Part shown: positions 13,107 through 15,032 of the stretch, one piece after another | Layout: the number at the start of each line of letters is the position of its first letter | Position numbering within the stretch: the first letter of the stretch is position 1 | Assembly: GCA_030614005.1 (NCBI GenBank) | Contig: JAUWKS010000072.1 | Coordinates: 1-15,350, forward strand | Direction: 5' to 3' | Length of the DNA: 15,350 nucleotides | Source of the DNA: Candidatus Heimdallarchaeota archaeon | Lineage (GTDB): Archaea > Asgardarchaeota > Heimdallarchaeia > JABLTI01 | Position numbers and translations under genes: made by a program | The notes under the pieces: generated by a model | The model's input: only the letters and a program-made list of their open reading frames with translations | Databases searched by the model: none | What the model was told of the DNA's origin: nothing

Positions 13107-15032
13107 ATGAAATCGATAGAGAAGTTATGCGAGAAATATACTATCATGAATGCACTCGACCATGGAGAAGCAAAGCTTGGTCCAGTTATGAGGATACTCA
13201 TGGCAACCCATGCGGAGCTCCGCAAAGAAGCCGATAAAGTAAAAGAAATTCTCGAACAACAAATTGATTTCATAAATTCATTATCAAAAGAAGAAATCGA
13301 AAAAATCGCTCGAGAGAAATTCCCTGAAATATTGAAAAAAGAAGAGGAACAAACCTCAACTGAGGATGTGGATTTCATTCGAACGATTATAAATGAAGAT
13401 CTTAAAACTAACAAATTTAACGGAAGAGTGCATACTCGCTTCCCTCCTGAACCAAATGGCTATTTACATATTGGTCATGCACAATCCATTAATTTGAACT
13501 ATGGTCTAGCAGCAGAATATGGTGGAAAATTCAATCTTCGATTTGATGATACAAATCCAATGACTGAAGAAATGGAGTACGTTAAAGGGATAATCGAAGA
13601 TGTAAAATGGTTAGGAGCAGATTTCGAGGATCGCTTGTTATTTGCTTCAGATTATTTCGACCAATTTTATGCTTATGCTGTCCAATTAACTGAAAAAGGA
13701 CTTGCTTATGTCGATGATCAAACTGTAGAGGAAATTAGAAAACACCGTGGAAATCTTACTGAACCAGGTAAAAATAGTCCTTTCCGGAATAGAACCATCG
13801 AAGAAAATCTCGATCTCTTTACTCGTATGAAAAAAGGTGAATTCCCAAACGGAACTAAAGTTTTGCGAGCTAAAATTGATATGAAGCATCCAAATCTAAT
13901 GATGCGAGATCCAGTCATTTATCGTATTCTCCACGAGACACATCACAACACTGGTGATAAATGGTGCATCTATCCAATGTACGATTGGGCTCACGGGTTA
14001 GAAGATTCAATAGAAGGAGTAACCCATTCAATTTGTACATTAGAGTTCGAAGTTCACAGACAGTTGTACGATTGGTTCCTAGATCAGCTCGAAGATGAAA
14101 ATGGAAAACCAATATTCCACCCAAAACAAATTGAATTTGCTCGATTGAACGTTTCTAATACTGTACTAAGCAAACGAAAAATGCTTAGATTAGTCAATGA
14201 AGGGTTTGTCAATGGTTGGGATGACCCAAGAATGTTAACAATTGTTGGATTAAAACGCAGAGGAATTACTTCTGAAACTATACGTGAATTTTGTAAAACA
14301 GTTGGTGTAACAAAAAACGACACAATTAGAGACATATCGGTTTTGAATAAATGCATTAGAGATGATCTGAACAAAAGATGCTCTAGGGTAATGAGTGTAC
14401 TAAAACCAATAAAATTAACTATCACAAACTATCCAGAGGAAAAAGTGGAAGAAATCACTGTTCCAAACCATCCAAAAAATAAAGAAATGGGTTCGAGAAA
14501 AGTGAAATTCTCAAAAACAATGTTTATCGAACGAGATGATTTCATGGAAAAACCAACTAAAGATTTCTTGAGGTTGGCACCAGGAAAAGAAGTTCGATTG
14601 AAATATGCTTACGTATTGAAATGTGATAAAGTCATTAAAGACAAAAAGTCTGGTGAGATAACTGAAATACAGTGTACTTATGATCCAAAATCAAAAAGTG
14701 GTCAAACTGGAGAAGATAAAGTGCACAGAACGATTCATTGGATTTCAGAGAAAAATGCTATTCAAGCAGAAGTAAGATTGTATAACCAACTGTTCACAAA
14801 AGTTAATCCTCTAGATACAGAAGAGGGAAAAGATTTTACGGATTACATTAATCCAAATTCTCTAGAAATTGTAAAAGCATATGTAGAACCTCATTTACAA
14901 AAAGGAAAGAAAGGTTCTAGATACCAATTTGAACGCCTAGGATTCTTCAACATAGATCCTAAGGATTCCAAAAAGAATGCTCTGGTATTCAATCAAATAA
15001 TTCCATTGCGCGACTCAAAACCAAAGAAATAG
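13107..15032 (+). CDS. glnS: Glutaminyl-tRNA synthetase: bacterial-type core with archaeal GluRS-type N-terminal domain
   Basis: DFIRTIINEDL, TRFPPEPNGYLHIGH (HIGH at 13467-13478), NLRFDDTNP, WCIYPMYD, HSICTLEF (Gln-specific Cys where GluRS has Arg), LSKRK (KMSKS equivalent), GWDDPRM, EVRLKYAY, IHWIS and QFERLGFF are collinear with E. coli-type GlnRS as recalled. Residues 1-74 match the archaeal GluRS N-terminal domain. Confidence 0.93.
   Translation: MKSIEKLCEKYTIMNALDHGEAKLGPVMRILMATHAELRKEADKVKEILEQQIDFINSLSKEEIEKIAREKFPEILKKEEEQTSTEDVDFIRTIINEDLKTNKFNGRVHTRFPPEPNGYLHIGHAQSINLNYGLAAEYGGKFNLRFDDTNPMTEEMEYVKGIIEDVKWLGADFEDRLLFASDYFDQFYAYAVQLTEKGLAYVDDQTVEEIRKHRGNLTEPGKNSPFRNRTIEENLDLFTRMKKGEFPNGTKVLRAKIDMKHPNLMMRDPVIYRILHETHHNTGDKWCIYPMYDWAHGLEDSIEGVTHSICTLEFEVHRQLYDWFLDQLEDENGKPIFHPKQIEFARLNVSNTVLSKRKMLRLVNEGFVNGWDDPRMLTIVGLKRRGITSETIREFCKTVGVTKNDTIRDISVLNKCIRDDLNKRCSRVMSVLKPIKLTITNYPEEKVEEITVPNHPKNKEMGSRKVKFSKTMFIERDDFMEKPTKDFLRLAPGKEVRLKYAYVLKCDKVIKDKKSGEITEIQCTYDPKSKSGQTGEDKVHRTIHWISEKNAIQAEVRLYNQLFTKVNPLDTEEGKDFTDYINPNSLEIVKAYVEPHLQKGKKGSRYQFERLGFFNIDPKDSKKNALVFNQIIPLRDSKPKK

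Follow-up and report, generated by a model that had tools for sequence, protein, structure and literature searches.

A glutaminyl-tRNA synthetase with a bacterial-type core and a putative archaeal GluRS-type N-terminal domain, encoded beside tRNA-Gln in a Heimdall-group archaeon

Reviews published in 2022 stated that no archaeon has a glutaminyl-tRNA synthetase (GlnRS), and explained this by the archaeal tRNA-Gln set A1:U72 and A73 (PMC9499178, PMC8762117). One paper has described transfer of GlnRS from eukaryotes to archaea and bacteria, and a 2024 preprint named GlnRS alongside the cox genes of Hodarchaeales and Kariarchaeaceae. The stretch of DNA analysed here (the window) is the entire contig C64, 15,350 bp in length, of a metagenome-assembled genome (3.6 Mb, 90% complete, 3.4% contaminated) from a Heimdall-group (Asgard) archaeon of a cold seep, and it carries a complete glnS gene (13107..15032, + strand; protein P0001) followed by a gene for tRNA-Gln. 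The locus raises the question of whether P0001 is a true GlnRS, where its parts came from, and how it stands to the indirect route through glutamyl-tRNA synthetase (GluRS) and GatDE. Heimdall GlnRS genes are not new, as they are already annotated by NCBI and mentioned in one preprint. We consider it probable, on comparison of sequences, that P0001 is a working, Gln-specific chimeric enzyme, in which an archaeal N-domain was grafted onto a bacterial core, and that this organism makes Gln-tRNA by two routes side by side.

The identity of the gene is clear. It opens with ATG and encodes 641 amino acids plus a stop codon without interruption, as seen in the list of open reading frames (ORFs) and the translation, and the assignment is supported by the NCBIfam glnS model TIGR00440 and by the match to the structure of the Escherichia coli enzyme. 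The whole protein scored 692 bits against TIGR00440 (cut-off 425.8), whereas its score against the archaeal gltX model TIGR00463 was 389 bits, under the cut-off of 401.75. The Pfam domains tRNA-synt_1c (PF00749, residues 108-422, E 6e-103), tRNA-synt_1c_C (PF03950, 425-526) and tRNA-synt_1c_C2 (PF20974, 542-617) follow one another along the protein. When compared with solved structures, residues 86-638 were collinear with E. coli GlnRS at 642 bits, with human GlnRS (437 bits), yeast GlnRS (376) and the GluRS of Methanothermobacter thermautotrophicus (211) scoring lower. An earlier note, made from the bare sequence, had described a full-length, intact GlnRS; the 641-codon ORF and its score of 692 bits bear this out, and the signatures quoted in that note (RFPPEPNG, HIGH, NLRFDDTNP, GDKWCIYPMYD and HSICTLEF) are all present.

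The core begins with the N-terminal helix DFIRTIINEDL and the Rossmann-fold catalytic domain (residues 89-422, 13371..14372, +), as defined by PF00749 and by the alignment to E. coli GlnRS from residue 86, and continues into two beta-barrel anticodon-binding domains (residues 425-617, 14379..14957, +) that correspond to PF03950 and PF20974. The HIGH signature, H121-I-G-H124 in the translation (13467..13478, +), is invariant across all aligned groups, while the KMSKS-type signature VLSKR (residues 353-357, 14163..14177, +) aligns to VMSKR of E. coli, the Lys at E. coli position 270 being invariant in the alignment. For the roles of individual pocket and anticodon-contact residues we assume the assignments that we take to hold for the E. 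coli enzyme. On that basis the Gln pocket of P0001 consists of R111, Y292, H296, C310 and Q341, equivalent to E. coli R30, Y211, H215, C229 and Q255, a set that was kept in all Heimdall orthologues of P0001. In contrast, in 16 of 16 GluRS sequences sampled position 229 is Arg, position 255 hydrophobic and position 215 small. The anticodon contacts equivalent to E. coli R341, R402, R410, Q517 and R520 are also conserved. The position of E. coli D235, which presumably contacts G3:C70, is occupied by Val, a site at which some bacteria vary too, and the substitution fits the A3:U70 pair of the tRNA encoded beside glnS. A four-residue loop carrying Leu136, within RGNLTEPGK in P0001 where the general pattern is RGTLTxPGK, is common to the bacterial and Heimdall enzymes, and is gapped in two of the three eukaryotic GlnRSs shown and in all GluRSs shown. 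P0001 is thus confirmed as a true GlnRS of the glutamine type, with the class Ib signatures and the pocket intact, and is predicted to charge tRNA-Gln directly with Gln.

The region that precedes the core points in a different direction. Residues 1-78 (13107..13340, +) form a helical domain, absent from bacterial GlnRS, whose homology to the N-domain of archaeal GluRS is indicated by the gltX model, by a hidden Markov model (HMM) and by an AlphaFold2 (AF2) model. The alignment of the archaeal model gltX_arch to P0001 begins at model position 3, the GluRS of the same genome (605 aa, contig C9) aligns to P0001 from residue 5, and the HMM, built from the GlnRS N-domains, matched the N-termini of ~150 archaeal GluRS representatives at up to 76 bits. 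In the AF2 model the domain is all-helical, with a predicted local distance difference test score (pLDDT) above 90 over residues 1-75. It is joined to the core by a charged linker (residues 79-88, 13341..13370, +), with pLDDT below 50 over residues 79-90; linker length and sequence differ between orthologues, and the domain itself was kept in all orthologues from f1, the family to which the window belongs, and from another family, f2. In a tree of N-domains those of GlnRS grouped with the N-domains of two Heimdall GluRSs (L192 and L193; 95 in the Shimodaira-Hasegawa-like approximate likelihood-ratio test, SH-aLRT), and not with the GluRS of their own family. P0001 is, as far as such comparisons allow, a chimera in which a GluRS N-domain (1-78) is fused to a bacterial-type GlnRS core (89-641).

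The wider kinship of the N-domain is less distinct. It belongs to no Pfam family, and a Foldseek search of the PDB with the model of the domain returned no matches. Structure matches of the model were weak; two YqeY proteins were among the nearest (YqeY Z 6.4, root-mean-square deviation 1.5), together with the tail of the GlnRS N-terminal domain from human (Z 6.5) and yeast (Z 5.8). A kinship with YqeY and the GatB tail is a lead only. It should be emphasized that the name under which NCBI lists the orthologous products, 'glutamine--tRNA ligase/YqeY domain fusion protein', is misleading, since the match to the model NF011291 spans no more than positions 7-556 of its 769, which is the GlnRS part, and no C-terminal YqeY domain was found in P0001, which ends at the second barrel.

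To what lineage does the core belong? A careful maximum-likelihood (ML) tree was built from 86 rows and 645 columns under LG+C20 with posterior mean site frequencies (PMSF). Eukaryotic GlnRS was sampled via a giant-virus copy, obtained by an alignment-based scan of viral contigs (a single-protein scan gave no matches); bacterial GlnRSs were taken from genome contigs, with E. coli glnS from its genome. The outgroup consisted of GluRSs from relatives and representatives, with no eukaryotic GluRS in the tree; two long representatives that were candidate eukaryotic GluRSs (P0322 and P0323) were scanned for a GST-like domain, which was not found. Eukaryotes and giant viruses (100/99) stood apart from a bacterial-type clade (100/97), and the N-domain-bearing Heimdall enzymes (100/100) lay within the latter, alongside Planctomycetota, Omnitrophota and Ignavibacteriota (98/96). 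The GlnRSs of a third Heimdallarchaeia family (f3, Hod-type) and of 'Odin' formed a second clade. When all Asgard sequences were constrained to group together, the likelihood was slightly above that of the free search and the joint clade remained nested in bacteria, next to a planctomycete. One entry into Asgard archaea thus explains the data as well as two. Identity between the core and bacterial GlnRSs is 61-65%. Together with the shared Leu136 loop, the nested position (98/96) supports a core of bacterial rather than eukaryotic type, as had been proposed from its motifs, and a grouping with GluRS, one of the outcomes named as overturning the proposal, was not seen. The further claim that the gene was transferred from a bacterium fares less well: the ML tree nests the core in bacteria, but two approximately unbiased (AU) tests, taken up below, did not reject other positions. 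A bacterial origin of the core is thus favoured but not proven. Because the eukaryotic enzyme branches apart, the finding says little on the origin of eukaryotic GlnRS.

The tRNA partner lies immediately downstream. The tRNA-Gln(UUG) gene (15124..15233, +) starts 91 nt after the glnS stop codon, contains a 32-nt intron (15163-15194) and has A1:U72, A73, A37 and an encoded CCA; A1:U72 and A73 make up the archaeal tRNA-Gln identity set. The gene was called by ARAGORN with introns allowed (a default run gave no tRNA in the window) and scored 45 bits against the Rfam tRNA model. The spacer contains a 10-bp stem-loop (15094..15119, +) that ends 4 nt before the tRNA, although folding of the whole spacer (15033-15123) was not significant (z -1.9). 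In all, this genome has three tRNA-Gln genes, of which the linked UUG gene and a CUG gene on contig C56 carry A37; the third is another UUG gene (C81:85438-85513; L232). This second UUG gene has no intron, carries G37 and shares its acceptor stem with the glnS-linked gene, while its D-arm and anticodon stem resemble those of tRNA-Glu(UUC) (C16:6536-6613). Acceptor stems are common to the A37 and G37 sets, which argues that the linked genes are retuned archaeal copies and not imports. A BLAST search with the tRNA-Gln of this genome found no match in two closed f2 genomes.

Linkage of glnS to tRNA-Gln extends beyond the window, as the two adjoin in most relatives examined, and glnS-linked tRNA-Gln genes have A37. 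The discriminator base follows the type of enzyme: tRNAs linked to N-domain enzymes have A73 in nine of ten cases, whereas those beside the f3 enzymes, which are without the N-domain, have G73 in 16 of 16. Indeed the f3 genomes with GlnRS hold two tRNA-Gln sets (L216-L221; G027, G025, G037, G033 and G019), one intron-less, G73/A37 and beside glnS, the other dispersed, intron-bearing and A73/G37. A73/G37 features also occur in tRNA-Gln of genomes where GlnRS was not found.

Acquisition of the direct route had been proposed in the earlier note, and a GlnRS is indeed present; a check of the genome for gltX, gatD and gatE, however, showed that the indirect route persists. One archaeal GluRS (C9) is encoded together with two GatD/GatE pairs, one canonical (C81:30778-34190; GatE 640 bits) and one divergent (C74:9123-12481; ~430 bits, the model match being split). 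Other genomes of the genus carry the divergent type too, and in f2 no other type was found (GatE ~400 bits), while the canonical type is that of the families in which GlnRS was not found. In nearly all genomes that encode GlnRS, both GatD and GatE are intact and score over the cut-offs of their families. The direct route would thus appear, from gene content, to have been added to GluRS and GatDE, not swapped for them. As a separate observation, the GluRS of the window's family (L001, C9) and one GluRS type of f3 (L198/L199) have very long branches, and two GluRS types that differ greatly from each other appear to occur in f3.

To define the distribution of the enzyme we surveyed 399 Asgard genomes from more than 30 families. 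Matches to glnS over the cut-off occurred in 40 of the 399, all in one class, Heimdallarchaeia. Counted by family as matches at E <=1e-100, GlnRS was present in 9 of 11 f1 genomes, 20 of 30 f2 genomes and 12 of 22 f3 genomes; it was found in none of the 12 genomes of f4, the three of f6, the 19 of f12, the 14 of f19 or the 135 of f20, nor in the remaining Asgard families searched, so that the carriers are three of the more than 30 families. Full-length orthologues are encoded by most f1 and f2 genomes, including two single-contig (closed) f2 genomes. Although the gene had initially been framed as a feature of one archaeal genome, glnS is inherited across three Heimdallarchaeia families and is not a peculiarity of a single odd genome. 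No cox genes lay within 3 kb of glnS in the single f3 locus examined.

The contig itself is archaeal, neither bacterial nor chimeric. Its DNA is matched along the whole length at 65-91% identity in ten of ten same-genus genomes, G+C is even throughout, and the top protein matches of P0001 (60-90% identity, full length), where they bear a name, are Heimdallarchaeota or Heimdallarchaeaceae. The flavin amine-oxidase-like gene upstream of glnS has the same adjacency in two same-genus genomes. Window positions 15224-15350 are identical to C74:43555-43681 (100% over 127 bases). Such contig-end repeats resemble an assembly-graph overlap, which looks as though it would place glnS ~31 kb from the divergent GatDE pair on C74. 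The same-genus DNA matches, the archaeal tRNA-Gln and the closed-genome orthologues uphold the archaeal setting described from the sequence alone and in practice rule out a bacterial or chimeric contig.

How might such a system have arisen? We propose that an ancestor of several Heimdallarchaeia families acquired the core (89-641) from a bacterium, possibly once only, and that the N-domain (1-78) was taken from an archaeal GluRS and joined to this core within the archaeal lineage. This YqeY/GatB-tail-like domain may add affinity for the archaeal tRNA body, and the added affinity could let the branch that has it retain A73, whereas the branch without it has G73 tRNAs. Direct glutaminylation by GlnRS would then run beside the GluRS/GatDE route, with glnS kept adjacent to tRNA-Gln. 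More speculatively, GlnRS may serve the A37 tRNA-Gln species (linked UUG and CUG), leaving the G37 UUG species to GluRS and GatDE.

Several observations weigh against parts of this proposal. By the AU test, a tree with the N-domain clade branching outside the whole of bacterial GlnRS was not rejected (p 0.16), and one with the clade sister to eukaryotes narrowly escaped rejection (p 0.063). A quick tree with a narrower bacterial sample placed the Heimdall clade sister to all bacteria, a position that would make it possible that an ancestral N-domain was lost in bacteria. The topology came from a tree holding the closest bacterial matches only, and was rejected as a sampling effect, as it disappeared once divergent GlnRSs and E. 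coli were added. The N-domain tree has just 78 columns, and the structural likeness of the domain to YqeY and the N-terminal domain of eukaryotic GlnRS falls within noise (Z 5.8-6.5; hhalign probability 47%). The division of labour is speculative, since it depends on the contrast between A37 and G37 and on the identity rules of E. coli, and the same-genus counterpart of the second UUG gene (L235, G010:C41:228195-228270) has A37 and U73.

It could be argued that GlnRS is ancestral to Asgard archaea, having arisen by duplication of GluRS in the stem of Heimdall archaea and eukaryotes with the N-domain retained, such that eukaryotes inherited the enzyme and bacteria received an N-truncated copy. 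The domain order of P0001 is that of archaeal GluRS, the N-domain bears a weak likeness to the tail of the N-terminal domain in eukaryotic GlnRS, and the quick tree with few bacteria and both AU values are compatible with this scheme. If true, Asgard GlnRS would predate eukaryotes, reversing the view of the enzyme as a eukaryotic invention passed to bacteria. The careful tree, however, nests the clade in bacteria (98/96 and 96/94 branches), and the best tree found has all Asgard GlnRSs nested next to a planctomycete. The core is 61-65% identical to the bacterial enzymes and reaches just 437 bits to human, the N-domain groups with those of present-day Heimdall GluRSs, and GlnRS was not found in other Heimdall families (0 of 12, 0 of 3 and 0 of 1 genomes) or in ~330 other Asgard genomes. 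We regard this origin as decidedly improbable. A takeover, in which GlnRS performs all Gln-tRNA formation and GatDE and the G37 tRNA-Gln are relics or otherwise employed, is somewhat less improbable, if still unlikely. It would agree with the occurrence of only a divergent GatE (~400 bits) in f2, and of a divergent besides a canonical type in the window's genus, and with the long GluRS branch of the window's family, as expected under changed constraints. Against it, nearly all genomes with GlnRS have an intact GatD and GatE that score over their cut-offs, and the tRNA-Gln genes with G37 and A73 are likewise intact, and conserved.

Two simpler doubts concern the protein and the contig. That P0001 is not a Gln-specific charging enzyme at all, being instead, for example, a GluRS-like or regulatory paralogue, is suggested only by the GluRS-type N-domain and the coexistence of a complete indirect route. 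The pocket is wholly of the GlnRS type, with Cys where every sampled GluRS has Arg, HIGH and KMSKS are intact, and the glnS score is far over its cut-off while that of gltX is under its own; we view such a role as very unlikely. Mis-binning of a bacterial contig deserves next to no credence. It might be entertained for a short sequence (15 kb) with no archaeal marker protein and with several neighbours from families common in bacteria, but whole-length DNA matches exist in ten same-genus genomes, G+C is even, the adjacent tRNA gene bears an intron, A1:U72 and A73, the gene itself includes an archaeal GluRS N-domain, and orthologues occur in closed genomes of the same class. A bacterial core with an archaeal graft, acting beside GluRS and GatDE, remains the interpretation that we favour.

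The rest of the window holds genes of other kinds. A 900-aa protein (606-3308, +) combines FG-GAP/beta-propeller repeats and bacterial thrombospondin type 3 (TSP3) repeats with a membrane segment and an acidic and C-terminal region of considerable length. It is followed by a 166-aa open frame (3630-4130, +) that corresponds to the C-terminal third alone of an NAD-dependent epimerase/dehydratase and is possibly a gene remnant. The product of 7384-9621 (+) is a family-5 solute-binding protein that has a membrane segment at its C-terminal end and a zinc-ribbon tail rich in Cys; it is one of a large family of paralogues, as many DNA matches at 65-84% identity occur in this genome (C16, C101) and in relatives. 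Positions 1-409 of the window repeat contig C25 at 95-99% identity. Elsewhere in the genome ARAGORN called a tRNA with anticodon CUA ('tRNA-Pyl') at C71:90626-90718. Of the sampled words, 38-74% occur in four sequencing runs of one cold-seep metagenome study, and small shares in four runs from sediment; no RNA run was among the sequencing runs listed for glnS.

The two Heimdall solutions, one in which the N-domain was added and A73 kept, the other with no domain and G73 tRNAs, constitute a natural experiment in the mutual fitting of a foreign synthetase and a tRNA already resident in the cell. The explanation by tRNA identity that the reviews offered for the lack of archaeal GlnRS is now testable, as a GlnRS adjoins a tRNA with exactly that set. 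The coexistence of GlnRS, GluRS/GatDE and two kinds of tRNA-Gln points to possible parallel routes to Gln-tRNA in the closest archaeal relatives of eukaryotes.

Among characterized enzymes, bacterial GlnRS (E. coli GlnS, PDB 1GTR, 1QTQ and 1O0B) has the same core, Gln pocket, anticodon contacts and Leu136 loop as P0001, from which it differs in lacking the 78-residue N-domain and linker and in having D235 in place of Val. The tRNAs differ as well, the linked Heimdall tRNA having A1:U72, A3:U70 and A73, unlike tRNA-Gln of E. coli, in which the corresponding set is U1:A72, G3:C70 and G73. The archaeal GluRS of M. thermautotrophicus (PDB 3AII) has its domains in the same order and begins with a helical domain homologous to that of P0001; the cores, however, are ~35% identical, and the pocket of P0001 contains Cys, Gln and His where GluRS has Arg, a hydrophobic and a small residue. 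The combination of a core with a small helical domain is likewise seen in the GlnRS of Deinococcus radiodurans, which has a C-terminal YqeY domain (PDB 2HZ7), and in yeast and human GlnRS (3TL4 and 4YE6), but in contrast with the D. radiodurans type the helper domain of P0001 is N-terminal, comprises ~78 residues and is the GluRS version. Closest in arrangement are the f3 (Hod-type) cassettes, in which a bacterial-type GlnRS likewise lies beside tRNA-Gln, although there the enzyme has no N-domain and the tRNA carries G73 rather than the A73 found here.

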